Below are positions 8,974 through 57,212 of a DNA stretch of 64,000 bases, piece after piece. Within the stretch, counting starts at the first letter, position 1; each line of letters opens with the position of its first letter. The notes beneath the pieces were generated by a model. The model did not search any database. It saw only the letters and a program-made list of their open reading frames with translations, and was not told where the DNA came from. A program made the translations under genes and the position numbers. Source of the stretch: Candidatus Zymogenaceae bacterium (lineage in GTDB: Bacteria > Desulfobacterota > Zymogenia > Zymogenales > Zymogenaceae); assembly GCA_016933535.1 (NCBI GenBank), contig JAFGAS010000077.1:1540-65539 (forward strand), in the 5' to 3' direction.

Positions 8974-8989
8974 TGGCATATGAATTGCT
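8974..8989 (+). promoter_or_regulatory. sigma-54 (-24/-12) promoter
   Basis: TGGCAT-ATGAA-TTGCT matches TGGCAC-N5-TTGCW. It ends 45 nt upstream of the 9034 start. Confidence 0.6.
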
Positions 8990-15312: not shown

Positions 15313-15328
15313 TGGCATAGGGATTGCT
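15313..15328 (+). promoter_or_regulatory. sigma-54 (-24/-12) promoter of the hox operon
   Basis: TGGCAT-AGGGA-TTGCT, ~95 nt upstream of the hoxF ATG. Confidence 0.65.
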
Positions 15329-39082: not shown

Positions 39083-39098
39083 TGGCACATAATTTGCT
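39083..39098 (+). promoter_or_regulatory. near-consensus sigma-54 promoter of the EPS export / maturase operon
   Basis: TGGCAC-ATAAT-TTGCT, in an AT-rich intergenic island, ~225 nt upstream of 39321. Confidence 0.7.
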
Positions 39099-41160: not shown

Positions 41161-41170
41161 AAGGGATGAC

Positions 41171-41854
41171 ATGAAAAGGAACATACTCATCACAGTCCTT
41201 ATCTGCTCGGCGCTGGCGGTTCTTTCCTGTGCCACGGGCTCAAGCATCGATGCCGATACGCTCCCGTCGGCACCGGGGGATGCCGTCCTCTATCAGCATA
41301 AGATTGTCCCCGGCGATACCATTTATATCACCGTCTGGGAGGTGGATCAGCCCAAGGAATTTACGGCCCAGGTAAAGAATAACGGCACGATAGACCTTAT
41401 GTTCATGACCGACCTCAAGGTTATAGGACTTACTGAAGATCAATTGAATGAGTACCTGGTCAAGGAAATCTCTACCTATTACGTAAATCCGAGAGTTTCG
41501 GTCTCGCTTTCGACTTTCATCTATCTCCTCGGCGAAGTGAGAAATCCCGGAGTATACGACTTTGAAAAGGGCCAGACGCTGATCTCCGTGCTCGCGGTTG
41601 CCGGCGGACCGACCAGGGCCGCAAAACTTCGTAATACCCTGATTATCCGCGGTGATTACCACGACAATCCCACGGTTATCGTTTCGGACGCCTCTCGAAT
41701 ATTCCGTAAGGGCGACCTCTCGGAAAACGTCATACTCCAATCGGGCGACATCATTTACGTGCCGTCCACGTTGATATCCGACGTCAATTACTACATTACG
41801 CAGATCAAGCCGATCCTGGACTTTTTTATGTTAAGTACATTGCTTGGCCTTTAG
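41171..41854 (+). CDS. outer-membrane polysaccharide export lipoprotein (Wza/OPX-like)
   Basis: Lipobox AVLSC, Poly_export-like PGDTIYITVWE, and a later SLBB-like QSGDIIYVP. Confidence 0.85.
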   Translation: MKRNILITVLICSALAVLSCATGSSIDADTLPSAPGDAVLYQHKIVPGDTIYITVWEVDQPKEFTAQVKNNGTIDLMFMTDLKVIGLTEDQLNEYLVKEISTYYVNPRVSVSLSTFIYLLGEVRNPGVYDFEKGQTLISVLAVAGGPTRAAKLRNTLIIRGDYHDNPTVIVSDASRIFRKGDLSENVILQSGDIIYVPSTLISDVNYYITQIKPILDFFMLSTLLGL

Positions 41855-41960
41855 GGCCGCCCATCGGACGGATTATCCCTGTCCGATATGCCCGGCACCC
41901 GGCCGCGACAATTCGGATGGGAGAAGACCGACGTTATTAAACCGCATGTGAGGCTGCAAT

Positions 41961-44219
41961 ATGCCCCAGTATGAGATACAACTCAAGGACCTCATCCGCA
42001 TTCTGAGACGGCGTAGAAATATCATCTTCTTTTCGATGATCGTTCTCGGTGTGTTGAGCATTGTCTTCGCCAAGCTACAGTCCCCAAGCCTCCTCTACCA
42101 GGCGATCGCCAAGGTAAATTACGACCAGACCAGGTCACTTGCGGGGATAACGTCGCCGGTATACTATTTCTCGCCATACGATAACATCAACTCGCAGACA
42201 AAGATTATCACGAGCTTTCCCGTCCTCGAGAAAGCCGCTAAGAAACTCGGGTATCTCAACAAGAAACTCTCGTCTTCGGAAATTCTCAAGTCCAAGGAAC
42301 ACATGGCCGTCATTTTGGGCTTGGAGGGCCAGATCAGGTGTGAGATCGAAGAGAACACCAACATCATCAACATCAAGGTTACCTCCATCGATCCGGCAAT
42401 GGCCTCCGACATCGCCAACGCGGTGGCCGAAGGCTACCGTGATTACAACCGTGAGCAAATCAATAAGCGGACGATCGACACCAAGGACTTCATCGAAAAG
42501 CAGCTCAACCTGGTCGGCGGACGCCTTAACGATGCCGAAGAGAACCTTAAGAATTTCCAGCAAAACCGGAACATCGTCGCCCTGGACGCCCAGGCCAGCA
42601 ATGACCTGAACTCATTGGCCGACCTCGAAACCGAGTACGAAAAGCTCAACCGTGAGAACAACGACCTCTCAGCCTTCAAGAGGAGGCTCTCATCCAAGAC
42701 CATAAGCGGAGGCGAGATCTTCCCCATCCTGGAGGAAGATATCTACAGCAATCTCTTCAAATTAAACACGGAACTCCAGAAGCTTCTCCTGGAACGCGAC
42801 GAACTTATGACGGTCTATACGGTCAATCATCCCAAGATCATTGACCTTAATGACAAGATTAATAATGTCCTTAACCTGATCACCGTCGACATCACTTCAC
42901 GAATCTCCTCCAACGGGGTCAGGATGGCCAACCTGAACAAGGATATCACTATCTATAAAGAACGGGGCGCCGAATACCCCGCCGACAACCTGAGTCTGGC
43001 CAAGTACGAGCGGGAGGTAAAGCTCCAGAGCGACCTCTATGCCGAGCTTTCCTCAAAGTACCAGGAAATTCTCATCCAGGAATCGGGGATGGTGGTGGAG
43101 GTAGGTATCGTGGCGCCGGCCCTTGTGCCGGGGGCCCCGATCAATCCGCCCAAGATATTCTCGTCTCTTTTTATCGGCATGCTGCTTGGGCTCTTCCTGG
43201 GCATCTTCTTTGCCATCGTCATGGAGAACCTCGATACTTCCATCGGCACTATCGAGGACGTCGAGAGCTACCTGGAAATTCCCGTTCTCGGGGTAATCCC
43301 TTCGATCACGGTGATGACCGAACAAAAGGGAGAGGAACCCGACGTTGAACACCACAGGGCTTCCTTATTGACCATCAGCATGGACCCCAAGTCACCGGTA
43401 ATCGAGGCCTATCGATCACTGCGCACCAATCTCATCTTCCTCCATCAGGAGAAGGGTATCAAAACCTTCATGGTTACCAGTTCCTCGCTACAGGAAGGTA
43501 AAACCATAAATTGTATCAACATTGCCGTCACGCTGGCCCTCGGCGGTTATCGAACGCTGCTGGTGGAGGCTGATCTCCGACGCGCAACGATCGCCAAGAC
43601 TTTCGGGATCGAGCGCTCTCCGGGCCTCTCGGAGGTGATCCTCGGAATCGTCCCCTGGCGGGAGGTTACCAGAGATATCAACGATATCCTTCTGGGCGGC
43701 CTGGAGATGGACACCCTCATAAAGTCCCCGGAGCTGGCAAATCTCTCCATTATCACCTCCGGCGCTTTTCCGACCAACCCATCGGAGCTCTTGAGCTCTC
43801 AACAAATGGCGAAGTTTATCGAGGAGGTAAAGGCCGAGTATGACCTTGTGATCTTCGATACGACTCCGGTGCTGCCGGTCACCGATGCGGTGCTCTTATC
43901 ACAGAAAATCGAGGGAGTGATCATCCTTTACGAGGTGGGCAAGATCGCCCGGGGCGTGCTCAAGCGGACGAAATCCCACCTTGACTCGGTTAAGGCAAAC
44001 ATCCTCGGGATTATCCTGAATAATGTTAGGCCGGAGTACGGACCCGAATACTACGACTATCACTATCAATATTACTACGAAGAAGGGAAACCGCCGAGAC
44101 GGGTCTCCGATTGGGAGAGGTTCAAGGAGTCCTTCTCTCCCCAGCATATTTCCCGCACCATAGCGGATATACTTGCGACGCTGGCCCGACCGTTTAGAAA
44201 AAAAGAAGAAAAGAAATGA
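41961..44219 (+). CDS. polysaccharide co-polymerase / BY-tyrosine autokinase (Wzc/GumC-like)
   Basis: N-terminal Wzz TM, coiled coils, a second TM, then SSSLQEGKT (Walker A), VEADLRR (A'), VIFDTTPV (B) and a Tyr cluster YGPEYYDYHYQYYYEE. Confidence 0.9.
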   Translation: MPQYEIQLKDLIRILRRRRNIIFFSMIVLGVLSIVFAKLQSPSLLYQAIAKVNYDQTRSLAGITSPVYYFSPYDNINSQTKIITSFPVLEKAAKKLGYLNKKLSSSEILKSKEHMAVILGLEGQIRCEIEENTNIINIKVTSIDPAMASDIANAVAEGYRDYNREQINKRTIDTKDFIEKQLNLVGGRLNDAEENLKNFQQNRNIVALDAQASNDLNSLADLETEYEKLNRENNDLSAFKRRLSSKTISGGEIFPILEEDIYSNLFKLNTELQKLLLERDELMTVYTVNHPKIIDLNDKINNVLNLITVDITSRISSNGVRMANLNKDITIYKERGAEYPADNLSLAKYEREVKLQSDLYAELSSKYQEILIQESGMVVEVGIVAPALVPGAPINPPKIFSSLFIGMLLGLFLGIFFAIVMENLDTSIGTIEDVESYLEIPVLGVIPSITVMTEQKGEEPDVEHHRASLLTISMDPKSPVIEAYRSLRTNLIFLHQEKGIKTFMVTSSSLQEGKTINCINIAVTLALGGYRTLLVEADLRRATIAKTFGIERSPGLSEVILGIVPWREVTRDINDILLGGLEMDTLIKSPELANLSIITSGAFPTNPSELLSSQQMAKFIEEVKAEYDLVIFDTTPVLPVTDAVLLSQKIEGVIILYEVGKIARGVLKRTKSHLDSVKANILGIILNNVRPEYGPEYYDYHYQYYYEEGKPPRRVSDWERFKESFSPQHISRTIADILATLARPFRKKEEKK

Positions 44220-44235
44220 GCGACGGGCATTTATC

Positions 44236-45630
44236 ATGAGGATTACCGGACGTGAAACCGGGAAGGGATCGGCTAACCTGCCCGTCTATGTCGTTCTCGG
44301 CCTCATGATCCTCTTTATCACGTTACTGGCCTTCCTGGTCTCCGGCGGCATGCAGCTCAAAATGGTGATCCTGATCCTCGGGATCATCGCCACGGCCATC
44401 TGCTTCTTCAATACAGAGATGGCCCTCTATCTCATTATCTTTGCAATGCTGTTTTCTCCGGAGTTTTCCTTCGGCGGCGAGATTGCCGAAGGGAGAAGTC
44501 TCGTCCTCCGGGTCGAGGACATTATAATTCTGGTGACCTTCTTTTCCTGGGTCCTCAAAACGGCCCTCTACGAAGGCGTGGGCCTTATTATCAGGACTCC
44601 CCTCAACCGCCCCATAAAGATCTACGTCCTTGTTTCATTAGTAACCACCCTTCTGGGGACGATTTTTGGAAAGGTCAACCTTGCCTCCGGACTCCTGTAC
44701 GTCTTCAAGTATATGGAATATTTCCTGGTCTTCTTTATGTTCGCCAACAATATTACGGATCGGGATCAAGTCAGGAGGTTCGTCATTGCCGCCCTTATCG
44801 TGGCCCTGTTCACGGCACTATACGCCTTCATACAGATACCCCTGGGAGCCAGAGTTACCGCCCCCTTCGAGGGTCAAAACGGCGAACCCAATACACTGGG
44901 CGGCTATCTGATATTGATCATCTCCGTGCTCGCCGGGCTCTGGACGGTCTATCAGGATAAACGGCTGAGGCTCATCTTGGTCTGCTTTATCGGCCTTCTA
45001 TTCGTCCCCTTTCTCTTTACGCTTTCCCGCAGTTCGTATCTTGCCGCAATCCCGATGTTCATCACCCTATTTATCTTCAGCGACAAGAAGCTCCTCCTGT
45101 CGTTTCTTCTGTTCGTGTTTATCCTGGCAACCCCGTTCCTCCTGCCGGAAAAGGTTAAAGGCCGGATCAACGAAACCTTCATCCCGGACCCGGGCTTCGA
45201 CAAGACCGAGGTGATCGGCGATGTCGGCTTCGACAGCTCCACTTCGGAGCGAATCTACTCATTCAAATACGCCATGAATAAGTGGCGGCAGCACCCGCTC
45301 TTTGGATGGGGCGTAACCGGCGTCGGGCTTATCGACAGCACCTATTTCCGTCTATTAGCCGAAATGGGGCTGTTGGGTCTTCTTTCATTTCTCTATCTCA
45401 TAGGGGTCATCGGTCTATACCTGTATGCCGCCTATCGTGAGAGTCAGGATCTGCTCGTCAAGGGCCTTGCCCTCGGGATGATCGCCGGAACCGCCGCCCT
45501 CCTCGGTCACAGCGTCGGGGCGGCCTCTTTCATCATCGTCAGAATCATGGAACCGTACTGGTTCTTCATGGCATGTGTCATTTCGCTGCGCCAACTGGAA
45601 CAGGCCGCATCGCCGGCTTATGAGCGGTGA
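44236..45630 (+). CDS. O-antigen ligase / Wzy-like polymerase family membrane protein
   Basis: ~11 hydrophobic segments, LFTLSRSSYLA motif, large loop followed by GWGVTG. Start trimmed to the ATG at 44236. Confidence 0.8.
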   Translation: MRITGRETGKGSANLPVYVVLGLMILFITLLAFLVSGGMQLKMVILILGIIATAICFFNTEMALYLIIFAMLFSPEFSFGGEIAEGRSLVLRVEDIIILVTFFSWVLKTALYEGVGLIIRTPLNRPIKIYVLVSLVTTLLGTIFGKVNLASGLLYVFKYMEYFLVFFMFANNITDRDQVRRFVIAALIVALFTALYAFIQIPLGARVTAPFEGQNGEPNTLGGYLILIISVLAGLWTVYQDKRLRLILVCFIGLLFVPFLFTLSRSSYLAAIPMFITLFIFSDKKLLLSFLLFVFILATPFLLPEKVKGRINETFIPDPGFDKTEVIGDVGFDSSTSERIYSFKYAMNKWRQHPLFGWGVTGVGLIDSTYFRLLAEMGLLGLLSFLYLIGVIGLYLYAAYRESQDLLVKGLALGMIAGTAALLGHSVGAASFIIVRIMEPYWFFMACVISLRQLEQAASPAYER

Positions 45631-46874
45631 CGCTTGTGAAACCCGCCTATTGCCTCAAGACGCCCCCCTCCTCCGGTCTGCCGGCCTCCATCCATCGCGA
45701 GGCGGCGGCTTCCGCTAACGAAAATCGTGCACAGGGGCGTCCGCCGGCGGATGCGCGCCAGATCACCGCCCGGGCCGTCCGTTTCGTGTGGGAAACGATG
45801 CTCGGGGCAAACCCGGTGACTCCCCGCGATCTGCCGGATTGGCTGCCGCCCGACCTCGTCTCGTTTGCCGCGGCCAAGGGTTCCCTTGGGCCCGTCATAA
45901 ACGCCCTGGATCGATGGGGACTTTCGGACTCCCTCGAACAAAAGGAGAAAGACAAGGCACGATTGACGCTCGCGCGGACGGCTATGGCCACAACGGCCAT
46001 GAGAGAGGAGCTCGGGCTGATACTCTCCAGGTGCGGCAAAAAGAACATCGACATAGTGCTCTTCAAGGGACACGACCTCATCACCGTCTGCTATCAGGAC
46101 GACACAATCCGTCCCACCACCGACGCCGACTTTCTCGTCCGGCGGCACGATTACCCGGCCCTAGTTAAGATTCTTTCGGACGCGGGGTATCGCCGGAATG
46201 CGGGCCCTCACTCCGGCGTCTGGTCCCGGGGGGGGTTGATTATCGACGTTCACTTCGGGTTCGTGGGGGATACCAGAAATCCGGCAAGTGCCTACCTTCC
46301 CCGCATCGAATCGGATGAGATTTTTAACGGTGCGCGTCGGCGGGAGATAAACGGTGTTGCCTATCTCTCCCCCGACCCGCGCCACAGCCTGATCATGACG
46401 GCGCTGCATGCACTTACCCACTCCTACGTCATGGATTTCTGGTTCATGGACGCCGGGGCGCTGCTCATAAAGAACGATCGGGCATCCTTTTCCCGGACGC
46501 TGGCTGACATCGCCCTCCGACACCGGCTTTCGGACGTTTTAAATTACCACCTCTGGTCAATCCGGGAGATCTTCGGGTTTCCCGGAGATATCCCCCTCCC
46601 GACGGATTATCGGCCGCCCCGGCCGATCCGGCGGCTCATCAGGACCGCCGTCAGGCGTACCGACTACCTCTTCTTCGGGGACATCCTGCTCGGATTTACC
46701 ATTGACAGCTATCGAAAAAAGTTTTATTATTTCAAAGAGATGGCGTTTCCACACCGGGATATCATCGCTCATGAGACGGGCATCGATTCCCACAGCATTA
46801 CGGGAGTCTACCGCGCGCGGTTGCTCCACCTGGCCAAATCGGTGTTTCGCGTCTTCTTTGCCGGTCGTCGATAA
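45627..46874 (+). CDS. uncharacterised nucleotidyltransferase-family (NTP_transf_5-like) protein
   Basis: IVLFKGHDL...RPTTDADFLVRRHDY...LIIDVHFGF resembles the DxD/hairpin core of that family. GTGA overlap with the upstream stop. The true start may be further downstream (M57). Confidence 0.7.
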   Translation: MTLVKPAYCLKTPPSSGLPASIHREAAASANENRAQGRPPADARQITARAVRFVWETMLGANPVTPRDLPDWLPPDLVSFAAAKGSLGPVINALDRWGLSDSLEQKEKDKARLTLARTAMATTAMREELGLILSRCGKKNIDIVLFKGHDLITVCYQDDTIRPTTDADFLVRRHDYPALVKILSDAGYRRNAGPHSGVWSRGGLIIDVHFGFVGDTRNPASAYLPRIESDEIFNGARRREINGVAYLSPDPRHSLIMTALHALTHSYVMDFWFMDAGALLIKNDRASFSRTLADIALRHRLSDVLNYHLWSIREIFGFPGDIPLPTDYRPPRPIRRLIRTAVRRTDYLFFGDILLGFTIDSYRKKFYYFKEMAFPHRDIIAHETGIDSHSITGVYRARLLHLAKSVFRVFFAGRR

Positions 46875-47491
46875 TGGTCGTCATCGACACTATAGTCTCT
46901 TTATATCTCTCTATCATACGGGGTCTCCTCGAACGGCGGATCAGCCTCTCGGAGACGAACGTCTTTCTCCTCGCCGACAAGATACTCGTATGCGAATGCG
47001 CCCGGGACGAGATCGTCCTGTTCAACATCGATAATCGGAGCGTCTACCTCCTCAACCACACGGCCGCGGCGGTCATCCGGCTTACCGACGGTGTCCGAAA
47101 CCTCGGATGGGTCGCCCGTAAAGTCGCCTGGGACTTCGATACGAAGACAAACGTCGTCGTTCGGGACATAAAAAAGATCTATCGGAAACTACTTAAAGAA
47201 GGAGTCATTGCCATGACGCCCGACTCTTCGTTCATACCCAAGATCAAGCAGGAGACCGTCATTCGCGAAGAGGACGACGGCGCTTTTATATTCGACCCGG
47301 TCACCGACGAGCTATCCGCCGTCAACGAGACGGGACTCCTGGTACTCAGGCAGATCGATGGGAAAAGGACCCTGGTCGATATCATCAACACCGTAGCATC
47401 CGAGTTTTCGGAAGTTGAGCCCGATGATATCCGCCGGGACGTAGAGGCTTTTGTCGAGGGGTTGGTAGATCGGGGGGTGATCGGTGCATGA
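46874..47491 (+). CDS. tandem PqqD-like (RiPP recognition element-like) protein
   Basis: Two repeats: VYLLNHTAAAVIRLTDGVRNLGWVARKVAWDF...IYRKLLKEGVI and LSAVNETGLLVLRQIDGKRTLVDIINTVASEF...VEAFVEGLVDRGVI. TAATG junction with the upstream gene. Confidence 0.8.
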   Translation: MVVIDTIVSLYLSIIRGLLERRISLSETNVFLLADKILVCECARDEIVLFNIDNRSVYLLNHTAAAVIRLTDGVRNLGWVARKVAWDFDTKTNVVVRDIKKIYRKLLKEGVIAMTPDSSFIPKIKQETVIREEDDGAFIFDPVTDELSAVNETGLLVLRQIDGKRTLVDIINTVASEFSEVEPDDIRRDVEAFVEGLVDRGVIGA

Positions 47492-47546
47492 GGCCCTCCC
47501 GAACAGGGGTCCTCACGGCCGATGAGTATACGAGGGGAGTACGATT

Positions 47547-48686
47547 GTGACTAAACAAAACGCGGCCCACCGGGTGGGAGATATATCTCCCACCCCCCCG
47601 AAGATACCACGGGCACCGCTGTCCGTCTTTATCTCCATCACCTCCCGGTGCAACCTGTCGTGCCGCCACTGCGCCGTCTACGGGGAGTCTCTTACCTACG
47701 GACCCGATCTCACGACCCCCCAATGGCTTTCATTTATCGATCATATCGCCCATCTTAAGGTGTTCCGGGTCAAGATCAGCGGTGGGGAGCCTTTCGTACG
47801 GGAGGATATCTTCACGATTCTGGATCATCTCTCACAAAAGCCGATCCGTTTTTCCATCAACACCAACGCCGTCCTCATCGACAAGGAGGCGGCACGCCGC
47901 CTCCAAACATACGAAGAAAGACTCTCGGATATCATGGTGAGCCTTGACGGCGGATCGGAGGAAATCCACGATGCGCTGCGGGGACCGGGCACCTACAAGG
48001 ACACGATACGGGGTCTGGGACGTCTCGTCGAGCGGATCGATCGGATCTCGGCCTACTGCACCGTGACGCGCCTAAACTTTCGACATCTGGGCGAGGTAGC
48101 CAGGCTGGCCGACGAGCTGCGGATCGGGGGCCTGAAGTTCAACGACCTCATCACCCTCGGAAGGGGCCATGACAATCGGGGAGAGCTCGATCTCTCGACC
48201 GACGAGCGCAACGAGGCCGCGGCATGCATCAATGAGCTCAAACAGACCTATCCCTTTGTCTCGGGCACTTTCTGCGAGGCAGACGAAATCTTTGACCAGA
48301 TTCGTTCGTCATGCGCAGAGGCCACACACGATGACCCCTTGAACATAAACTACCTCTCCGGATGCGGCGCACTGAGGACCGAATGCGCCGTCCGGCCCGA
48401 CGGATACGCAACCCCCTGTGACCGCCTTACCGAGCTTGTGGCGGGAAACATCCTCGATACCGCCCTTGACACGATATGGACTCAATCGCCGGTATTCAAG
48501 GAATTTCGCCGCCGCTTCATCACCCCGATCACGAGCCTTCCTACCTGTGCCGACTGCAGGTACGCCCCGTACTGCACGGCGGGATGTGCCGCGGCGGCAT
48601 ACGCGGTTTCCGGCACGACGCTCGCCCGGGACCCGTCCTGCTGCCTCAGGCTTCGCGAAGAGGAGGCGTCTCGTGGGGGCCGATAA
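47547..48686 (+). CDS. radical SAM / SPASM-domain enzyme 1
   Basis: ITSRCNLSCRHC, ISGGEPF, C-terminal CGALRTECAVRPDGYATPCD...CADCRYAPYCTAGC. GTG start after AGGGGAG. Confidence 0.9.
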   Translation: MTKQNAAHRVGDISPTPPKIPRAPLSVFISITSRCNLSCRHCAVYGESLTYGPDLTTPQWLSFIDHIAHLKVFRVKISGGEPFVREDIFTILDHLSQKPIRFSINTNAVLIDKEAARRLQTYEERLSDIMVSLDGGSEEIHDALRGPGTYKDTIRGLGRLVERIDRISAYCTVTRLNFRHLGEVARLADELRIGGLKFNDLITLGRGHDNRGELDLSTDERNEAAACINELKQTYPFVSGTFCEADEIFDQIRSSCAEATHDDPLNINYLSGCGALRTECAVRPDGYATPCDRLTELVAGNILDTALDTIWTQSPVFKEFRRRFITPITSLPTCADCRYAPYCTAGCAAAAYAVSGTTLARDPSCCLRLREEEASRGGR

Positions 48687-49761
48687 GACACCCTCCTACC
48701 CCCTCATCCACGCATACCTCTACCTTTCCGGCGGGTGCAACCTCCGCTGCGCCCACTGCTGGATATCCCCCAGCTTTACCCCCAAACCGGAGGCCGTGCA
48801 AGACCGCCTGACCACCGGCGATGTCAAAAGGATCGCCGACGCGGCACAACCCCTAGGGCTTTCTTATGTCAAACTCACGGGGGGCGAGCCGTTTTTGAAC
48901 GAGGATATTTTCGATATCATCCAGCTGCTGGCAGGCCGTAATCTGTCGATATCGATCGAGACCAACGGCACCCTGGTCGACCGGGACGCCGCCGCCTTTC
49001 TTAAGAAGAACGGTGTTTATTCGGTCAGCGTGAGCATGGACAGTCACCGGGCGTCGTTCCATGACGCCTTCCGGGGAGTCGCGGGGGCGTTGGACGGCGT
49101 TATCGCGGGCACCGAGTCTCTCGTGGCCGAGGGACTCGACGTACAGGTCATTATGAGCCTGGTCAACGAGAACGCCGCCGATATCGAAGGACTCGTCGGC
49201 ACCGCCGCGCGGCTCGGGGCGCATTCGGTGAAAATAAATCCCGTCAATCCTATCGGAAGGGGCGGGGCGCTGATGGATCGGGGGAAGATCCTGCCGGTGG
49301 AAGAACTCGTTGCCCTCTCCGGGTGGGTGGAGACGGAGCTTCCCCGGCGGTACGGCATTGAGACGTTCTTTACCATCCCATCGGCCCTCAAGCCGATCTC
49401 CCACCTCTTTGACGGAAGAAATGCCCAGTGCCATATACTGAACATCATCGGGATCCTGGCCGGCGGTGATATCTCCATCTGCGGTATCGGTCGCGAAGAA
49501 CCCGAGCTCGTCATGGGCAATATCCGAACCGATGACCTGGCCCGGGTTTGGGAAGACAGCCCCGTGCTCAAGCATCTCCGAGACGTTGTACCGCGTCGGA
49601 TGGAAGGAATTTGCGGTCGCTGCGTGATGGCGGGGATCTGCCTCGGTTCCTGCCGGGCCGACGCCTACGTCCTCTCGGGAAGCCTCACCGCATCGCACTG
49701 GATGTGTGAGGAGGCCCACGAGAAAGGTCTTTTCCCTCAGACAAGGATAATAGAGAGATGA
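48673..49761 (+). CDS. radical SAM / SPASM-domain enzyme 2
   Basis: LSGGCNLRCAHC, LTGGEPF, C-terminal ICGIG...CGRCVMAGICLGSCRADAY. GTG at 48673 follows GAGGAGG and overlaps enzyme 1 by 14 nt; the track ORF starts far upstream inside enzyme 1. Confidence 0.85.
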   Translation: MGADKTPSYPLIHAYLYLSGGCNLRCAHCWISPSFTPKPEAVQDRLTTGDVKRIADAAQPLGLSYVKLTGGEPFLNEDIFDIIQLLAGRNLSISIETNGTLVDRDAAAFLKKNGVYSVSVSMDSHRASFHDAFRGVAGALDGVIAGTESLVAEGLDVQVIMSLVNENAADIEGLVGTAARLGAHSVKINPVNPIGRGGALMDRGKILPVEELVALSGWVETELPRRYGIETFFTIPSALKPISHLFDGRNAQCHILNIIGILAGGDISICGIGREEPELVMGNIRTDDLARVWEDSPVLKHLRDVVPRRMEGICGRCVMAGICLGSCRADAYVLSGSLTASHWMCEEAHEKGLFPQTRIIER

Positions 49762-50720
49762 TCGTCACGATCGGGGGGATATCGGCGCGCCTGACTCTCA
49801 TCGACGCCGATAAGGGCAGGCCGACAGATAGCGTCGGCCCGGTACTGAACGATCGTATCTCCCCCTTTACGGGCCGGTCAAATCGAGTCTCTCTTAACCT
49901 GACGGTAACGAGGTTCGTCAGGTCGTCCTGGTACGAGATACTGACGCCCAAGGATTTCACGCGGACGCAACACATCATACGCAGGATCCGGGAGAGGTTC
50001 CCCTTCACCCCGATACTATTTGGTAAAACAAATAGTCACAAGCCGCCGACGAAGGCCGGTGATATATCCCTGCCCCTCCTGGCCGCTTTTGACAGCAGAC
50101 ACGTCTCGGTCATCGCACACCCCGGTTTTCTCGTAACGGTGGACCACCGGGTCGGGAACGCCGACGCCCTCGTGAGGATCGACGATGATCGGGATTGGGA
50201 AACGTCTCTGATACCCGTGTTTCAGGGCGTGCTGGCCCTGTGCGCTCCGGATCACGGCGCCCTTATGCTCCACGCCGCATCACTGGTCCTGGCAGGTAAA
50301 GGCTATCTCTTCATCGGAAATTCCGGTGCGGGCAAGAGCACAATCGCAGCCTCGGTCGATCCCTCGCTGGTTCTCTCCGACGACGGGTCCTGGTGTTCGC
50401 AAAATGACGGGGACTTTTCCCTCTTCCCGACCCCCTTTTCCCAAATCGACCCAATACCGAATCCCGGAGGCCCGGTCCCCATCGAGCGCGTCCTCTTTCT
50501 CGAAAAGGGCACCCAAAATCGGATCGTCGATCTGTCGCCGGGCCGAGCAATGACGATGCTGCTTTCCAATCATATCCATTTCTTTCGGTTCATGGCTCAC
50601 GAACCGGCGGCACGGGCCTTCGGCCTTGTCGAAGGGCTCTGCCGGAGGCATCCGGCCTCGACCCTTGTTTTTACCCCCGATTTTAACCCCAAACCCTTTT
50701 TTCAGGAGAACAGCCGATGA
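49758..50720 (+). CDS. HPr-kinase-C-terminal-like P-loop protein
   Basis: HAASLVLAGKGYLFIGNSGAGKSTIAA mirrors the HprK H..V...G.G.LI.G.SG.GKS core. ATGA overlap with enzyme 2. Confidence 0.75.
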   Translation: MIVTIGGISARLTLIDADKGRPTDSVGPVLNDRISPFTGRSNRVSLNLTVTRFVRSSWYEILTPKDFTRTQHIIRRIRERFPFTPILFGKTNSHKPPTKAGDISLPLLAAFDSRHVSVIAHPGFLVTVDHRVGNADALVRIDDDRDWETSLIPVFQGVLALCAPDHGALMLHAASLVLAGKGYLFIGNSGAGKSTIAASVDPSLVLSDDGSWCSQNDGDFSLFPTPFSQIDPIPNPGGPVPIERVLFLEKGTQNRIVDLSPGRAMTMLLSNHIHFFRFMAHEPAARAFGLVEGLCRRHPASTLVFTPDFNPKPFFQENSR

Positions 50721-50920
50721 AAGGAAACAGGCCGTTTGAGCCCCGGGCGATCATCGACCTGCAGGTGGACCATACCCGGGCGGTGGGCGCTTCACGGTGC
50801 GTGGGGGGGGACAGGCCATCGGACAAAGCCCGGCGGGTGCCCGGCCGACCGTTGTATGCGCACGGGGTCTTTTGGCAGGGCCGTAAGCTGCCGGGATGGG
50901 GCCAGCGCCAAGAACCGTAA
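50717..50920 (+). CDS. candidate 67-aa ORF (uncertain; possible small protein or precursor)
   Basis: ATGA overlap with the stop of 49758..50720 and a G/C-rich third codon position. Arg/Gly-rich with no recognisable motif, and three other ORFs overlap it. Confidence 0.25.
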   Translation: MKGNRPFEPRAIIDLQVDHTRAVGASRCVGGDRPSDKARRVPGRPLYAHGVFWQGRKLPGWGQRQEP

Positions 50921-50982
50921 TTTCAGGAGATCGCCGCAGCATCCCCGCGTCCGACCCATTCGCACACAACGAAGAGACACCG

Positions 50983-51411
50983 ATGGACTATAGACGCATC
51001 AAATTTCGGGGATACAGCATGTATCCCGCCCTCCGTCCGGGCGACACCCTCGTTCTGAAGGCCGTGGAAGCGCACAATCTGCGTCCGGGCGATATTATCT
51101 GTGTTCCGGAAAAAGGACACTATGTATCGCATCGAATCGTCGGTATTTCAACCACGCCCGACGGCGTTTTTCTCACAACCAAGGGTGACAACCTCCCGGC
51201 CCCCGATGCGACCCGTCGACTTTCGTCGGGAGACACCTACAGGCTTTTCTTGATCAATCGACCGAACCGGGGTATTATTCGACCCCGATTCGGTCGCCTT
51301 ACCGCGCTCCTTTCAACGAGAAATCTCACCTACGGGATCATCAAGGGGAGGATGGGAATAATCGTCCGGCGGGCCTTATCGTCTGTGCGTTTCCGCACTC
51401 CGCCTTGCTGA
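50983..51411 (+). CDS. type I signal peptidase, S26 family, SipW/archaeal-like
   Basis: FRGYSMYPALRPGD (Ser nucleophile box), HRIVG, and TTKGDNLPAPD (KGDN box). ATG at 50983 follows GAAGAG. Confidence 0.75.
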   Translation: MDYRRIKFRGYSMYPALRPGDTLVLKAVEAHNLRPGDIICVPEKGHYVSHRIVGISTTPDGVFLTTKGDNLPAPDATRRLSSGDTYRLFLINRPNRGIIRPRFGRLTALLSTRNLTYGIIKGRMGIIVRRALSSVRFRTPPC

Positions 51412-51517
51412 GCAGCTACACCAATGCCGTTCTGCCGTTCCTAATCGTATCATCGGCAGTATCATGGAAAGCGCACGAAATCTCTTTTCTCGAAGATATG
51501 ACCGCTGTGCCGACCGA

Positions 51518-52279
51518 CTATAGGCCGCCGATCGGTATGACCATCAGGTCCTCGGCCACGGTAATCTTTCCCGAAAAACAGGCGCCGACGGCCAATACGA
51601 TATCCACGTCTTCCATCGGGGGGTAGAGGTGGGTCAGGACAACGTGCCGGACGCCGGCGTCCCGGGCGAGACTCCCTGCCTCGGACGGCGTCAGGTGCCC
51701 CGCCACCTTCATGTCGTCCGGAAATGAGCACTCCAACAGCAGCAGGTCCGCTGCCCGTGCCAGCGCCACGAGGTCGTCGGAGAGGTCGGTGTCTCCCGAG
51801 TAGACAAACGAGGCGCCGCCGTCCTCAAATCGCATCGCGATGCTCTCGGGGTTGTGGTTTACCGGCGCGGTCGCCACTGAAAAGTCGCCCAGGTCGATAG
51901 ATTCCCCGGTTGCCTCCCGAATATCAAGACGGTAGGCCTCCGGGACGATCCAGCCGCCAAAGACCTCGATGAGTCCGGCGTAGAGCTCACCGAATCCGCC
52001 GGGCGCCACGACGGTCAGGTCCCGGGTTCGGCAGCTTCCCACGGCATATTTTGAGGCAAACACCAGCGGCACGAAATCGGCGATGTGGTCGGGGTGAAAG
52101 TGGGAGATGCAGATGACGTCGATATCCGAGATACCGGCGCCCGCCTCGACCATACGCCGGAGCGTTCCCGGCCCAAGGTCTATGAGGACGGTCTTCCCCC
52201 CGATCCTCAGGATATGGGCAGGCGACCAGCGTGTCAGAGAGGGAACGATCGTTCCCGAGCCGAGAATAGTAAGCTCCAT
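51518..52279 (-). CDS. MBL-fold metallo-hydrolase (RNase Z/PhnP-like)
   Basis: LTILGSG...LIDLGPG...CISHFHPDHIADF. Confidence 0.85.
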   Translation of the reverse strand: MELTILGSGTIVPSLTRWSPAHILRIGGKTVLIDLGPGTLRRMVEAGAGISDIDVICISHFHPDHIADFVPLVFASKYAVGSCRTRDLTVVAPGGFGELYAGLIEVFGGWIVPEAYRLDIREATGESIDLGDFSVATAPVNHNPESIAMRFEDGGASFVYSGDTDLSDDLVALARAADLLLLECSFPDDMKVAGHLTPSEAGSLARDAGVRHVVLTHLYPPMEDVDIVLAVGACFSGKITVAEDLMVIPIGGL

Positions 52280-52408: not shown

Positions 52409-54397
52409 CTAAGGCTTACGCACGTCGCCCATCGGCTTTGTTAGTATATTCCATAGCGTTCGCCTGTATCGGATAACACATCCCCCAACCGCGATCACCA
52501 GCAGGCAGATGACGATAATAGTCAGGCGCCGATCGACATAGACGGCGCTCACGCTCGTCTCCTCACCCATACCAATCAGTTTCACGAAACGAAAGACCTT
52601 CCCTCTGAGCGGCAGGTCAAAGCCCTCGGAGGCCGGCGGCAATTCCGCTCCCGTCTTATCGGGCATCTGCTGCTGCTCGTAGATGGCCTCTTCGAGTTCC
52701 TCCTGCCGTTCGTACACCGACCTCTTGAGGCGCATGTTTTCCGACACAAAGGATTTTGTCGCCTCCGAAGAGAGCACCTCCGTGAAGTATTCGATCGGCT
52801 CCATGTCTCCGCCGAAAGACAGGTACGACATACCCTCAGGGAGGTAGAAAGTCGCCATCATCTGGCCGGTTGGGATTTCGAGCCGCGGCAGCGGCAGCAG
52901 CAGCCGCCCGGCCAGCCCCAGCGTTTTCGTCGGCACGAAGATGACAACGGAGACGATAAATGGTTCGGCGGCATCGCCGGTACCCATCGGAAGGGGTACC
53001 ATGACGACACCCTCCTGTTTGGTCGACGTCCTTACCGCAATTCCCCGCACCGAGGCCGACCAGAAGACCGAACCGGCCGGCAGGGATATCTTGAGAAACT
53101 GGAGGTTCCTGTTGCGGATAAAATAGTTCGTCCTCACGACCATCTTGCCGTCCGTTGTCACCAGGACGACCGAGTTTGCCGAATCGGCAAAGGCCGAGAG
53201 CGCATACAGGGCCTCCCCCTTTCCGATCGCCACCGAGAGAGAAAAACCGGGGTCGGTAAAACGATAGGCAAGGATCGGCGGCAGGGCCGACAGGGAGACA
53301 ATGGCCTGGGGAAGCTCGGAGGGGTCCCGGGGCGTGAGAAGCTCGGCCTTTTCCTCGGTAACCTCAAATCCGCCGCCCGAGACGACCATGACAAAGCCCG
53401 TCGTCCGGATGGCGCCCACGGGGGTGACCTTGGGCAGCGCGGCCGAATCCATATCCTCCGTCCTTCCCTTCTCGAAGGAAAAAACAAGCCCGTAGGTCCC
53501 GATGACGTCGTATCCGACGGTAACGGCAACCTCCGTGCGGTCCTCGGAAACCTTCCATGAAGCGATCCCCTCTCCCGTTACATCCAGGAGGTCAAAGCCC
53601 TTCGGCAGCTTTACCCGAAACGACCGCACGGGGGCGTTTCTTACTTCGTAGCCGATGCGGGTCCATGAAAGGACCGCTTCCTCCTCGATATCCATTACCG
53701 ACAGGACCTCGGCAATTATCTCCGGGGGACCGATTATCTTCTTGCCGGGGGCCTCCGGTTTATCCACGGCTGCAACGGTATAGGAGACCGTGATGCCGCC
53801 GCTGCCCGAGAGCACCGACGAGATTCTCCCCGGCGCAGAAGCGGTGACAACCCCGCCGACCCCCACGTCGGTAAAATAACGCGGGTAACTCAGATCGACA
53901 CCCCTGACCGCCGCATTGGGGCCCGGGATCGTTACCGTGTGGGGACCCGGCGTCTGGGGGGCGTCGCAAACGACGACCGCCCGGATCGTCTTTTTCCCCT
54001 CGCCCACAAACGCCACCCACACACCGTCATCCCGCACAAACGTGACCGCCTCCTTATCGTCGACCCAAACCGAGACCAGCGGCGTATCCCGGCCGGCAAC
54101 GAACAGCTCGTGCCATCCCTCACCATAGGCCGTTGCGTAAAGAATCACCGACGATTCCAGCCGACCGGACGAAAGGCGGATGGAATAGGCCGCCCTGCCG
54201 ACCGAAACGTCAAACGGCGGCGGAGGAGGAGGGGCCGGCTTGCGGCCGAGCTCCTCCATCATCTTTACAAACTGGTCCCACGGCACGGTAATCTTCGTAT
54301 CGGGCAACGACGGGAACGCTGCCTTTTCGGCGCGGACCTGAGAGGCCGTCAGGATAAGAAGAAGGACCAGCAGCGCCGGGAGAGCCTTACTTCTCAT
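52409..54397 (-). CDS. large secreted/membrane-anchored protein, paralog 1 (unknown family)
   Basis: Signal peptide MRSKALPALLVLLLILTASQVRA, ITVPWDQF, a P7 tract, a beta-rich body and one C-terminal TM (LTIIVICLLVIAVGGCVI). Collinear motifs are shared with 54387..56672. Confidence 0.85.
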   Translation of the reverse strand: MRSKALPALLVLLLILTASQVRAEKAAFPSLPDTKITVPWDQFVKMMEELGRKPAPPPPPPFDVSVGRAAYSIRLSSGRLESSVILYATAYGEGWHELFVAGRDTPLVSVWVDDKEAVTFVRDDGVWVAFVGEGKKTIRAVVVCDAPQTPGPHTVTIPGPNAAVRGVDLSYPRYFTDVGVGGVVTASAPGRISSVLSGSGGITVSYTVAAVDKPEAPGKKIIGPPEIIAEVLSVMDIEEEAVLSWTRIGYEVRNAPVRSFRVKLPKGFDLLDVTGEGIASWKVSEDRTEVAVTVGYDVIGTYGLVFSFEKGRTEDMDSAALPKVTPVGAIRTTGFVMVVSGGGFEVTEEKAELLTPRDPSELPQAIVSLSALPPILAYRFTDPGFSLSVAIGKGEALYALSAFADSANSVVLVTTDGKMVVRTNYFIRNRNLQFLKISLPAGSVFWSASVRGIAVRTSTKQEGVVMVPLPMGTGDAAEPFIVSVVIFVPTKTLGLAGRLLLPLPRLEIPTGQMMATFYLPEGMSYLSFGGDMEPIEYFTEVLSSEATKSFVSENMRLKRSVYERQEELEEAIYEQQQMPDKTGAELPPASEGFDLPLRGKVFRFVKLIGMGEETSVSAVYVDRRLTIIVICLLVIAVGGCVIRYRRTLWNILTKPMGDVRKP

Positions 54398-56672
54398 GTT
54401 TCTTTTCCAATTTGGATCGTTCTTTTTCCCGCTTGATGTGTTCCTCTTTCGACTGCCGGGCCATTTCCTTGATCTTTTCGATCAGGTCTCTGGCAAAGAG
54501 GCCGCCGCCGATGAGGACGGCAATAACGAGCCCCCACCAGGCCGCACCGGTGTCCATGATCAGGAAAACGGCAATCAGGATAATCGCAATCAACGATCCG
54601 CCGAACAGCGCCGCGAGCCTTCGATCGATAACGACCCGCCGCACCTCCAGGGACTGCCGCAACGCGATGATCAGGCTGACAAAGAGGATCCCGAACAGGG
54701 CCATGCCGATATAGAACAGGAGGCCGGAAACTCCTTTCCCCTCGTATCTGATCCTTATCGTGGACCGTTCGCCGGGGCTGACGATCGCCTTGGAAAAACT
54801 CATTGGTCGGCCGGAAAACGGAATGTCAAGCTTGACGGGCAGCACCCCCTTCATTCCCGTAACGCCGCCCATGGCCGACAGCCCCTCGGCGTAGATATTC
54901 TTTTCCATGTAGATCTGGGACCGGGGTTCTTCCTTCTTTTCGAAGTCGCCCCGGTACACCTCATCGGATGCATCCATTTCTTCCATGGGCGCCAACGCCG
55001 GGGCGTTCATTCCCATGTCTGATCCATACCCAATGGGGGCAGGCGTACTAGGCTCCATGTCCTTGCCGACACTCCTGTAGGAATACCGCTCCGGTAAATA
55101 TACCGTCCACGCCTGGGCATCGGTCTGGATATCAATGACGGGGGCGATAAACTCACGCCTGCCCAATAATGCACCGAGAGGCTTGGTTTCGGTAATATAG
55201 ACGACCTCTACGACAAAAGAGGTGAGCGAGGTGTCGGTGCGGGCGGACCGGTCAAGGGGGATAAGGATCGTGCCGTCCTTGTCCACCGACGGCTTGACCG
55301 GCCGATCCGAGACGTAGGCGCTCCAGAGGGTCGAACCCTCCGGCAGCGAAAGTCGCATGAACTGCTTGACGTTGTTTTTTATCTCAAAGACGGCCCGGGT
55401 CACCAGGTCGCCCCGAACCGTCAACAGAGAGGCCAGGTCGGCCTTCTTCACCACCGTGGTGAGGCTCGGGATATCCTCATAGGTCACGACCGAGAGTCTG
55501 AGGGCGTAGGGGTATTTCAGGTATTTATAGGAAAAGAGGATCGGGTTTTCCGAGGCGGAAACGAGATCGGGCGGAAGCTCGGAGCTGTCCAACCCGGCCA
55601 GGTTCTTGGACGAGATCTCCTCGATCCCCACCTTTGTGGAGGCGGTAACCGCCAGATAGCCGATCTCCCGGACCACGTCATTGACCTCGATCTGAGGCAC
55701 GTCGATATCGGCGGTGGTTCCTCCCATATTGCGCTCGTAGAGGAGCACGATGTTCGTCGTGCCGGAGACCGCAAATCCCGTGTTGATGAGAATCGTCGAG
55801 GTGTCGCCGTTCGGGACGGCCTTCCAGTCGCGAACCGCGTCTCCCGAGACGTCAAGGATATCGATGCCGGCCGGCACGACGACCGAAAACGTCGAGAGGG
55901 TCCCATGCGAGATGTCGTAGCTAACCGTGGTGACACCCTTCATAATCCCCTCACCCACCGAGATGATGGTATTGACCTGTGCCTGTACCCTGAGCGTCCC
56001 GGAGATCTCCTCACGTACGGCGGGGCTCCATGAGATAAGGGCCCGGTCGGTAACCGGCAGCACCGCATCCAGGGTTGTCGAGCCGCCGGAGGGCGTAACT
56101 TTCCTGAAGTGGGCGGGTGTTATCTGTATATCGAGACCCGGCCTGGGTACGGAAAACCTGAGCGTTGAAGACGGGACTTCCGGAAGGGGAATATCGACGG
56201 CGTTCGGGCCGGCACCGGTATCGACGGGGACGAAGAACTTCAGCGATACGGTGTGCGTTCCCGGTTTATCGGTAATAATAACATACATGCCGTTTCGAAC
56301 CGAAAGGGTAACGGGGACGCCGTCCATGGTAACGTCGGAAATCGCCGCTTCGCTGGACAGAAGCGGGACCTCGACCCATTTTTTCTCGGCCAGCACCACC
56401 ACCGCAAACGACGCGGAAAAAACGGCGCTGTCTCCCTCGAGTCTCCCGGTATAGGCCACCGAGCTCACCGAATAGTCGGCGGGGGGCGCGGGTGGGGCCG
56501 GGGGAGGCGGAGGCGGGGCGATCAGGTCCTTAATAAGCTCCTTGAAGTCCGACCAGGGGATAGTAACGGCGCCACCCGTCAGGTCGGGTAGCCCCCCTTG
56601 CTCGGACCGGGCGGATGCGGTTGCGAAAAATAACGCGACGACAATACAGGAAAAGATGATTGCCTTTTTCAC
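54387..56672 (-). CDS. large secreted/membrane-anchored protein, paralog 2 (unknown family)
   Basis: GTG start after GGGAGG. Signal peptide, VTIPWSDF, PPPPPPAPPAPP, three C-terminal TM segments and a Lys/Glu-rich tail. 11-nt overlap with paralog 1. Confidence 0.85.
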   Translation of the reverse strand: MKKAIIFSCIVVALFFATASARSEQGGLPDLTGGAVTIPWSDFKELIKDLIAPPPPPPAPPAPPADYSVSSVAYTGRLEGDSAVFSASFAVVVLAEKKWVEVPLLSSEAAISDVTMDGVPVTLSVRNGMYVIITDKPGTHTVSLKFFVPVDTGAGPNAVDIPLPEVPSSTLRFSVPRPGLDIQITPAHFRKVTPSGGSTTLDAVLPVTDRALISWSPAVREEISGTLRVQAQVNTIISVGEGIMKGVTTVSYDISHGTLSTFSVVVPAGIDILDVSGDAVRDWKAVPNGDTSTILINTGFAVSGTTNIVLLYERNMGGTTADIDVPQIEVNDVVREIGYLAVTASTKVGIEEISSKNLAGLDSSELPPDLVSASENPILFSYKYLKYPYALRLSVVTYEDIPSLTTVVKKADLASLLTVRGDLVTRAVFEIKNNVKQFMRLSLPEGSTLWSAYVSDRPVKPSVDKDGTILIPLDRSARTDTSLTSFVVEVVYITETKPLGALLGRREFIAPVIDIQTDAQAWTVYLPERYSYRSVGKDMEPSTPAPIGYGSDMGMNAPALAPMEEMDASDEVYRGDFEKKEEPRSQIYMEKNIYAEGLSAMGGVTGMKGVLPVKLDIPFSGRPMSFSKAIVSPGERSTIRIRYEGKGVSGLLFYIGMALFGILFVSLIIALRQSLEVRRVVIDRRLAALFGGSLIAIILIAVFLIMDTGAAWWGLVIAVLIGGGLFARDLIEKIKEMARQSKEEHIKREKERSKLEKKHEK

Positions 56673-56864: not shown

Positions 56865-57212
56865 ATGGGATGTCTCTTTTGCAATCTGGTTGCCAAACAG
56901 CAACCTTCCACGATTGTCTATGAGGACGACAAGGTCTTCTGTTTTGAGGATATCAACCCCCTGGCGCCCGTCCACGTAGTGGTGGTCCCCAAGGAGCACG
57001 TCGACGATCTCAACACCCTGTACCGGAACGGCAAAATGTCGATCATGGAGGCTATGTACCGTGGTGCCTTCGAGGTCGCCAGGATAAAGGGCATTGACCA
57101 CCGGGGATTCCGCACGGTGATCAACAACGGACCCGAGGGCGGCCAGATCATCTGGCACCTGCACCTGCACGTGCTGGGGGGCAAACGCCTCGGCGACGGA
57201 CTGGCGGGATAG
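56865..57212 (+). CDS. HIT-family (HinT-like) nucleotide hydrolase
   Basis: CLFCNLV...VVVPKEH...[12 protein letters not shown] at 56865 follows GAGAGG. Confidence 0.85.

Follow-up and report, generated by a model that had tools for sequence, protein, structure and literature searches.

The stretch of DNA analysed here (the window; 64 kb of contig JAFGAS010000077.1 from a Candidatus Zymogenaceae bacterium) contains a conserved peptide-modifying cassette of the SynChlorMet (Scm) type inside an exopolysaccharide (EPS, slime) export operon. We consider it likely that the whole arrangement is a variant of the Scm maturation cassette for peptides made on ribosomes and modified after translation (RiPPs), placed in a sigma-54-driven Wza/Wzc/Wzy operon, with a local precursor gene, scmA, that survives as a relic. 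The operon is a tightly packed string of + strand genes (39321–51411) downstream of a sigma-54 promoter. As an initial annotation of the window had described, the maturase genes in this string lie directly behind Wza/Wzc/Wzy-type genes and the promoter at 39083, which has a perfect motif.

Scm models are the top NCBIfam matches for four of the window proteins. Two radical SAM (rSAM)/SPASM enzymes match TIGR04251 (ScmF; 349.6 bits, cut-off 400) and TIGR04250 (ScmE; 226.6 bits, cut-off 400) best and at full length (1–353 of 353 for TIGR04251). TIGR04248 (ScmD; 59.6 bits, cut-off 100) matches only the C-terminal half of a fused PqqD protein. The P-loop protein scores 28.3 bits against TIGR04249 (ScmC; cut-off 125), whereas the same protein carries a precomputed assignment to PF27840. 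Homologues 81% identical to the ScmF-like protein have been named ScmF by JGI, and over 1000 family members are found at E ≤ 1e-30.

When species-representative genomes were scanned with exact peptide words, eight true cassette loci were returned; L009–L019 are unrelated rSAM genes. A neighbourhood of two rSAM/SPASM genes, PqqD, ScmC and a small Cys-rich open reading frame (ORF) is shared by the window, L001–L006, L020–L025 and L027–L030. The fuller set, with an NTP_transf_5 nucleotidyltransferase and an S26 peptidase accompanying PqqD, ScmE, ScmF, ScmC and ScmA, recurs in L001–L005, L020–L023, L028 and L029. The maturase set is co-conserved across genomes, a point that the initial annotation had raised as a check.

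The scmA gene and its relatives

The initial annotation reported no visible substrate and no precursor ORF. A gene of the ScmA family does sit at 50717, frameshifted here and intact in relatives, and this apparent relic largely resolves the missing-substrate puzzle. The ORF that starts there (orf67; 67 codons, 50717–50920) matches the ScmA leader over its first 31 residues (hidden Markov model (HMM) E 2e-12). With intact ScmA proteins as tblastn queries, the alignment to the window runs through three successive frames. Past a run of eight G (G8, 50803–50810), homology moves to a second frame (50806–50883), which reads GGQAIGQSPAGARPTVVCARGLLAGP and then a stop, and from there to a third (50865–50936), which reads GSFGRAVSCRDGASAKNRNFRRSP. 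The lesions include at least two frameshifts, Cys-to-Ser and Cys-to-Arg substitutions, a Gly-to-Arg substitution at +3 (98% conserved), a TAA in frame (50884–50886) and a lost stop codon. In the leader, two otherwise invariant residues are mutated (Y7F and P10R). With one Cys, orf67 is the sole outlier among 47 family members counted, the others having four to nine. As there are multiple lesions here while 12 other operon genes are full length, we conclude from the sequence that orf67 is a relic of the precursor gene and not the product of a single sequencing error. Repair by a single G insertion was tried and rejected, as it yields a 56 aa product with two Cys and a premature TAA. No other ScmA-like sequence was found in any frame of the 64 kb.

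In L002–L005, scmC and the peptidase gene flank a small ScmA-like ORF. L002 and L005 each have two copies, the second one in L005 being upstream of scmC. The corresponding ORF immediately follows scmC in L020–L023, L028 and L029, and lies beside the Scm genes in L024/L025, L027 and L030. TIGR04252 (ScmA) is the best match of the relatives' small ORFs (E 1.5e-6, 28 bits; highest score 28.3 bits, cut-off 35), and the window ORF has no match to it. The ScmA leader has the form PYEPPKIIDLQVDYTQAVG, and in L002–L005 it reads M-K-x-K-K-P-Y-E-P-P-K-I-I-D-L-Q-V-D-Y-T-Q-A-V-G before the Cys-repeat core. Across 44 leaders, Y7 and P10 are the sole invariant positions. The core consists of four to nine copies of a decapeptide repeat, C-x2-G-x2-(A/P)-x3, which gives four to nine Cys per peptide in precursors of 65–115 aa. 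Cys-Cys spacing is 10 in 135/221 cases, with G at +3 in 98% and A or P at +6 in 89%. A profile search for ScmA-like peptides returned 46 proteins, one of which (P0005) has been named ScmA by JGI, and an exhaustive HMM search returned 948 cluster representatives at E ≤ 1e-3. The AlphaFold2 (AF2) model of ScmA has a mean confidence (pLDDT) of 46, which we read as probable disorder, as expected of a precursor; the model was left out of the fold search.

An orphan ScmA-like precursor of 100 aa (P0042) was found in L026 (10001–10303), beside a PAS histidine kinase gene and with no maturase gene within 10 kb. Precursors can hence be encoded away from the cassette, and a remote substrate is plausible in the source genome. 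The family also includes long versions with at least 20 repeats, namely P0211, P0244 and P0265 (214–280 aa) and P0221 (266 aa). The C-terminal domain of P0221 was read as a putative sorting domain of the type IX secretion system (T9SS) type, which, if correct, hints at an extracellular destination. P0205, a glycosidase-like protein of 1062 aa with a tandem FSCHAGTEFA tract, was considered as a giant family member and rejected as a probable low-complexity artefact.

Next after the peptidase gene, L002–L005, L020–L022 and L029 have a gene for an AMP-binding (adenylating) enzyme, which is absent from the window (51411–51518) and from L001. Wzy and ScmF of L001 are 94–96% identical to those of the intact locus L020, and in L001 the whole stretch that begins with the scmA core and ends with the AMP-binding gene is gone. 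When L001 (12104–12780) is compared with L020 (10074–12467), homology stops exactly where the scmA leader meets the core, and it picks up again in a downstream gene for a 670 aa protein. Homology between the window and L001 likewise ends at this junction (50801), which looks like a hot spot for recombination or indels. Precursor and adenylating enzyme have thus apparently been lost independently in two lineages, the window's and that of L001, and this paired loss suggests that the two work together.

The maturation enzymes and a proposed pathway

The cassette comprises seven ORFs (Table 1) rather than the six first counted, the extra one being orf67. The domains assigned earlier were recovered by HMM searches: PF14907, PF05402, PF04055 with PF13186 in both rSAM proteins, the P-loop GNSGAGKST and an S26 peptidase that passes TIGR02228. 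PqqD domains, two rSAM/SPASM enzymes, a kinase-like protein, a nucleotidyltransferase and a peptidase make up a RiPP-style maturase set, as had been proposed. Five start/stop overlaps had also been listed. All are present and four had been assigned to the right genes: the Wzy stop TGA overlaps GTG 45627 (GTGA), the NTP_transf_5 stop TAA overlaps ATG 46874 (TAATG), the ScmE-like gene (stop at 48686) overlaps GTG 48673 by 14 nt, with a GAGGAGG ribosome-binding site upstream, and an ATGA junction is found at 49758. The ATGA at 50717 opens orf67 and not the peptidase gene, whose reading frame is a different one and begins at ATG 50983 (MDYRRI...), the start shared by all relatives. A gap of 55 nt separates the end of the PqqD gene (47491) from the start of the first rSAM gene (47547).

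Table 1. Features of the window's EPS-Scm operon and its likely regulator
Feature	Position	Strand	Matches and remarks
Sigma-54 enhancer-binding protein (PAS + AAA+ + HTH)	36542–38731	+	NCBIfam matches of AtoC/PrdR/PEP-CTERM-box regulator type, E ~1e-96 to 1e-109, all below equivalog cut-offs
Sigma-54 promoter TGGCAC-N5-TTGCT	39083–39098	+	sole exact match within 64 kb
ExeA-like AAA ATPase (XrtA/PEP-CTERM-system-associated type)	39321–40160	+	TIGR03015, 244.8 bits (cut-off 324.5)
HD-GYP-type HD-domain protein	40090–41160	+	HD-GYP domain match E 1e-22; PF13487/PF01966 in relatives
Wza-type polysaccharide export protein	41126–41854	+	TIGR03027, E 9e-24
Wzc-type chain-length determinant/tyrosine autokinase	41961–44219	+	TIGR01005 and TIGR01007
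Wzy_C (O-antigen ligase/polymerase-like) membrane protein	44173–45630	+	PF04932, 45.5 bits; TIGR03097-like
NTP_transf_5 nucleotidyltransferase	45627–46874	+	PF14907, 95 bits; conserved in L001–L005, L007, L020, L023, L027–L029
Fused double PqqD/RRE protein, ScmD-like, 205 aa	46874–47491	+	PF05402 in two stretches, 79 bits; TIGR04248, 59.6 bits
rSAM/SPASM enzyme, ScmE-like	47547–48686	+	PF04055 + PF13186; TIGR04250 best match; CNLSCRHC, GGEPF, 7-Cys SPASM
rSAM/SPASM enzyme, ScmF-like	48673–49761	+	PF04055 + PF13186; TIGR04251 best match; CNLRCAHC, GGEPF, 7-Cys SPASM
ScmC-family P-loop protein, PEPCK/HprK-type fold	49758–50720	+	precomputed Pfam PF27840; TIGR04249 E 1e-6; GNSGAGKST
scmA relic (apparent)	50717–50936	+	leader in annotated frame 50717–50809; core remnants in two other frames, 50806–50883 and 50865–50936
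Soluble ER/SipW-type S26 peptidase, 142 aa	50983–51411	+	TIGR02228, 54 bits (cut-off 51.85)

The two halves of the fused PqqD protein, each a putative RiPP recognition element (RRE), are separate genes in L023 and L029, and its C-terminal half resembles the PqqD upstream of scmF in L027. Relatives combine such elements with maturases and a precursor that has a leader; in the window, the leader is recognisable and the core is destroyed. The match of this ORF to PF05402 and the co-conservation of the genes both agree with a peptide-maturing role, and neither rSAM enzyme was placed in the clade of anaerobic sulfatase-maturating enzymes (anSME). In the ScmF-like protein, alignment with the anSME structure 4k37 (E 5.6e-7) is confined to the N-terminal rSAM core. 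The 25 best NCBIfam matches of each rSAM protein include no anSME model, and no sulfatase was found among the neighbouring ORFs scanned. Neither a lasso cyclase (asparagine-synthetase-like) nor a B2 transglutaminase-like protease domain was found in ORFs from 39321 to 51411, as the initial annotation had also noted.

The AF2 model of the ScmC-like protein (pLDDT 88.5) was compared with known structures using Foldseek. As phosphoenolpyruvate carboxykinase (PEPCK; E 5e-7, TM-score 0.45) and HprK/P (1knx; E 1e-4, TM-score 0.26) are the best neighbours, with PEPCK ahead, the earlier label of HPr-kinase-like is appropriate at the level of the fold superfamily and no closer. The Walker A motif, G-x-S-G-x-G-K-S/T, is invariant across relatives. 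A search of PDB sequences gave no matches for the NTP_transf_5 protein and none that was meaningful for the ScmC-like protein. In the S26 peptidase, the Ser (GYSMYP; SM.P), His (HRIV; HR[IV]) and Asp (KGDN; KGD) boxes can be aligned with those of human SEC11C (7p2q) and do not vary among 10 orthologues. Neither this 142 aa protein nor its orthologues, as read directly from their sequences, have a hydrophobic N-terminal segment or a membrane anchor that would hold the active site outside the cytoplasm, and it is a candidate leader peptidase.

All invariant ScmC residues, the rSAM and SPASM cysteines and the S26 Ser, His and Asp are retained in the window. Relative to L021, the ratio of non-synonymous to synonymous substitution rates (dN/dS), averaged over both lineages, is 0.16–0.34 for the enzyme genes and 0.09–0.17 for the EPS genes. 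The enzyme genes hence appear intact and under constraint.

The following pathway is proposed. An ScmA-type precursor, consisting of a leader of the form given above and four to nine decapeptide repeats, would be made first. The two PqqD/RRE domains would bind the leader and pass the precursor to the two rSAM/SPASM enzymes. The strict periodicity of the Cys residues suggests that these enzymes could introduce one Cys-derived cross-link per repeat, and by analogy with the sactipeptide and ranthipeptide enzymes among the weaker matches, thioether-type cross-links are the most likely outcome. The ScmC P-loop protein would then phosphorylate Ser or Thr, a step modelled on the HprK homologues of lasso peptide systems, and the NTP_transf_5 protein might add a group such as a sugar to the phosphate. 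Removal of the leader after the motif A-x-G/A would fall to the soluble SipW/Sec11-type S26 peptidase, and the product would act with the EPS assembly and export machinery outside the cell. The motif is A-V-G in the window's clade and A-H-A, A-Y-A or A-F-A in distant clades. Type I signal peptidases follow a –3/–1 rule, and the A-x-G/A motif fits it.

The EPS operon and its link to the cassette

The complete EPS-plus-Scm operon is common to the window, L001–L004 and L020/L021. In L027 and L030, where ScmF identity is 47% and 44%, the order on one strand is PqqD-ScmF-HD-GYP-ScmC and on the facing strand ScmA-ScmE-PqqD-ExeA-like ATPase-low molecular weight (LMW) phosphatase, so that the HD-GYP gene sits between scmF and scmC. 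L027 also has Wza, Wzc, Wzy_C and NTP_transf_5 genes alongside the Scm genes, and an AAA_22 homologue of the ExeA-like gene adjoins Scm genes in L024, L027 and L030. In L024/L025, genes for the LMW phosphatase, ExeA-like ATPase, PqqD, rSAM and ScmA are found together with ScmC, HD-GYP and rSAM genes on the opposite strand, followed by Wzc and Wzy_C. In L023, Wzy_C adjoins NTP_transf_5 and a PEP-CTERM protein is encoded nearby. The recurrence of Wza/Wzc/Wzy/ExeA-like genes beside the cassette had been raised as a question by the initial annotation; they do recur, but not in all loci, as L005, L028 and L029 lack EPS genes. Among the loci compared, the EPS-Scm link is frequent and interleaved, not obligatory. 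The initial description of the cassette as welded onto the EPS operon understates the link, since EPS and Scm genes are interleaved in distant relatives. This interleaving makes the link look functional.

In the EPS-free loci L005, L028 and L029, the cassette is sometimes accompanied by an ABC exporter and a B12-binding rSAM gene. Such a gene heads the cassette, beside the ABC exporter gene, in L023 (4811–6220) and L028 (7182–8591), and none is found in the window; with respect to these B12-rSAM genes, L023 and L028 are classed as two EPS-free loci, though L023 has Wzy_C. EPS genes and the Scm cassette have diverged unequally: between L003 and L001/L020, Wzy shares 94% nucleotide identity and ScmF 74–75%. 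A GT4 glycosyltransferase gene is inserted between Wzy and NTP_transf_5 in L002–L004 (~5770–6950) and is not present in the window, L001 or L020. The unequal divergence and the insertion suggest a mosaic history, with a recombination breakpoint at the EPS/Scm junction.

The enhancer-binding protein (Table 1) is likely to be the activator of the operon. L001 has a sigma-54 site with one mismatch at an equal distance (~238 nt) upstream of its ExeA-like gene. In the window, one-mismatch sigma-54-like sites were also seen at 8974–8989 (+), 15313–15328 (+) and 56880–56895 (–), the first two preceding a histidine-kinase gene and a NuoE/F-like gene, respectively. A second sigma-54 response regulator, which resembles the PEP-CTERM-box regulator (428 bits), is encoded at 13468–14844. 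Rfam scans of the 5' untranslated region and the whole window returned no match, and hence no known riboswitch lies behind the sigma-54 promoter. In a promoter/terminator scan of the window, the signal was not above shuffled background. A near-consensus sigma-70-like site (TTGACA-17-TATTAT, 11/12) lies at 46702–46730 (+), in the 3' end of the NTP_transf_5 gene. It precedes the PqqD start by 144 nt and may drive the maturase genes from within the operon. The HD-GYP ORF has a TTG start and overlaps the ExeA-like gene by 71 nt (40090–40160). As its relatives align from residue 2 and L003 shares the overlap (240–304), it may be real. The true start of the Wzy_C gene is probably ATG 44236, as relatives align only from residues 19–25 on.

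Elsewhere in the window, a third rSAM/SPASM protein (27333–28484, –; PF04055 and PF13186) is encoded in a divergent sugar-biosynthesis block that includes DegT aminotransferases, GT4, GT2 and GT9 transferases, WbqC, PIG-L and a WecA-type initiating transferase (22635–23765). As it has no PqqD partner, this enzyme may act on sugar. Beyond the cassette, 52409–54397 (–) and 54387–56672 (–) encode paralogous proteins of 662 and 761 aa that are ~26% identical and have no Pfam or NCBIfam match. The 662 aa protein carries a signal peptide and is anchored to the membrane at its C-terminus, and the pair is syntenic with the cassette in L001–L003, L020 and L022.

The repeated wiring into Wza/Wzc/Wzy machinery favours a function in the extracellular matrix over that of a classical bacteriocin. 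A stronger proposal, which we put forward as a speculation with the odds against it, is that the Scm product is a working part of Wzy-dependent EPS assembly and not a free antibiotic-like peptide. One possibility is that a cross-linked, phospho-glycosylated decapeptide-repeat peptide serves as primer or anchor for the polymer, attached by the O-antigen-ligase-like Wzy_C protein, giving a conjugate of ribosomal peptide and polysaccharide. Another is that the product is an obligatory matrix or regulatory partner of EPS. If true, a role in EPS assembly would account for the way in which the scm genes of distant lineages are interspersed with genes for HD-GYP, ExeA-like ATPase, Wzb/Wzc and Wzy_C, and this conserved coupling is the aspect most worth pursuing. 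With its local precursor broken, the source genome is a poor starting point, and loci of the L020 or L003 type, with an intact ScmA of 84 aa, are better.

Alternatives and comparison with known systems

The state of the precursor gene admits other readings. If the frame changes in 50717–50936 were sequencing or assembly errors, the precursor would be intact and the window would encode a normal ScmA. The first frameshift does fall within the G8 homopolymer (50803–50810), a classic site of such errors, and the related metagenome-assembled genome L001 has many split genes typical of indel errors. However, one indel is insufficient, as a second shift near 50880 and an in-frame TAA follow. The Cys-to-Ser, Cys-to-Arg, +3 Gly-to-Arg, Y7F and P10R substitutions and the lost stop codon also argue against it, as do the 12 other operon genes, which are full length with no frameshift over ~12 kb. 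We therefore consider an intact precursor improbable. Taking scmA as a relic, either the window enzymes serve a precursor encoded elsewhere or they have just lost their substrate and are starting to decay. That the whole cassette is already a decaying, non-functional remnant, with the precursor and adenylating enzyme the first to go, seems unlikely, if somewhat less so than an intact scmA. It would account for the scmA relic and the missing AMP-binding gene, and the same two genes have been lost independently in L001. Against this, ~5.2 kb of enzyme genes contain no stop or frameshift while the 0.25 kb precursor gene contains at least two, the catalytic motifs are unbroken, the dN/dS values, though averaged over both lineages, are low in the enzyme genes (0.16–0.34), and the L026 orphan shows that precursors remote from maturases exist, so that a remote substrate is plausible.

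A different kind of alternative is that the enzymes modify the polysaccharide or its precursors, as an EPS-tailoring module and not a RiPP system. They share an operon with Wza/Wzc/Wzy and persist without an intact local precursor, NTP_transf_5 recurs beside Wzy_C in four arrangements, and the third rSAM/SPASM gene lies within the sugar-biosynthesis block (27333–28484). We nevertheless rate this very improbable, as the set has two PqqD/RRE peptide-binding domains and an S26 peptidase with a matching A-x-G/A site in the leader, and no complete locus has the enzymes without ScmA-like ORFs, the EPS-free L005, L028 and L029 included. Hardly any likelihood attaches to membership of the GeoRSP or HPr-rel-A systems, under which the initial annotation had filed the set. 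Their models do give weak matches (TIGR04303, 136 and 129.5 bits; TIGR04302, 24.5; TIGR04352, 20.7; TIGR04353, 23.6), far under the cut-offs of 400, 100, 200 and 35, respectively. They are outscored by the Scm models (226.6, 349.6, 59.6 and 28.3 bits), and JGI calls close homologues ScmF and ScmA. Several points also weigh against an Scm-type cassette with a relic precursor, quite apart from the position of the first frameshift in a G8 run. Every Scm HMM score falls below the curated NCBI cut-off, and ScmC is at least as PEPCK-like as HprK-like, with low TM-scores (0.26–0.45). The search for ScmA-like sequences covered the 64 kb window, and a second precursor may lie elsewhere in the source genome. 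Within the pathway, analogy is the source for the type of cross-link, the site of phosphorylation and whatever group the nucleotidyltransferase adds. An A-x-A motif without an S26 gene is found in loci of the type seen in L024, L027 and L030, so that the assignment of the peptidase to this site is not general.

Among known systems, the SynChlorMet (Scm) cassette (TIGR04248–TIGR04252; PF27840) shares with the window the two rSAM/SPASM enzymes, PqqD, the ScmC P-loop protein and an adjacent small Cys-rich precursor. In the window, however, two PqqD domains are fused in one protein, the cassette also includes NTP_transf_5 and an S26 peptidase, neither of which has an Scm model in NCBIfam, and the whole is embedded in a sigma-54 EPS operon with an apparent scmA relic. 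A literature search on the SynChlorMet cassette, ScmA/C/E/F, PF27840 and rSAM+SPASM+EPS found no paper; the family is defined computationally only, as database models. The loci described here supply a large, well-defined precursor family, characterised by a motif in the leader, Cys in decapeptide repeats and a likely cleavage site, A-x-G/A. They also extend the parts list by a nucleotidyltransferase and an S26 peptidase; most loci have an adenylating enzyme as well, and some a B12-rSAM enzyme. GeoRSP (TIGR04302–04304) and HPr-rel-A (TIGR04352/04353) have similar parts lists (PqqD with rSAM/SPASM and PqqD with an HprK-like protein, respectively) and weaker HMM matches.

For the lasso peptides paeninodin and pseudomycoidin, a kinase homologous to HprK phosphorylates the C-terminal Ser of the precursor, and a lasso nucleotidyltransferase puts one or two hexoses on the precursor phosphate (PMC8498205). 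The phosphorylated lasso systems and the window have in common a kinase-like P-loop protein, a nucleotidyltransferase and a PqqD-type RRE, but the window lacks a lasso cyclase and B2 protease, the precursor is a Cys-repeat peptide, and ScmC bears only a distant resemblance to HprK (TIGR04352 E 1.8e-4; fold E 1e-4). The lasso nucleotidyltransferase is presumably a member of PF14907. The HMM and PDB matches of the window rSAM proteins include MftC, WgkB, StsB, AlbA, PapB, SkfB (6efn) and PqqE (6c8v). With the sactipeptide and ranthipeptide maturases (AlbA, SkfB, StsB and PapB), MftC, PqqE and WgkB they share the rSAM and SPASM domains, an RRE partner and a Cys-rich core. This similarity is at the superfamily level only (E 1e-17 to 1e-45, far below cut-offs), and the non-peptide enzymes AhbD and NirJ score about equally. 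Unlike the sactipeptide and ranthipeptide systems, the Scm cassette has two paralogous maturases for one 10-residue repeat.

The ExeA-like ATPase, Wza, Wzc-type kinase, Wzy_C protein and sigma-54 regulator all match models for XrtA/PEP-CTERM EPS loci. They are the top-ranked models of just three of these proteins (the ExeA-like ATPase, Wza and the Wzy_C protein), and all scores are below cut-offs. No exosortase or PEP-CTERM protein was found among the window ORFs scanned, which were part of the total. A peptide-maturase cassette is not known as a component of the PEP-CTERM locus. The window's cassette differs from the Scm cassette of the database models in its fused double RRE, its setting in an EPS operon and what appears to be a relic precursor.

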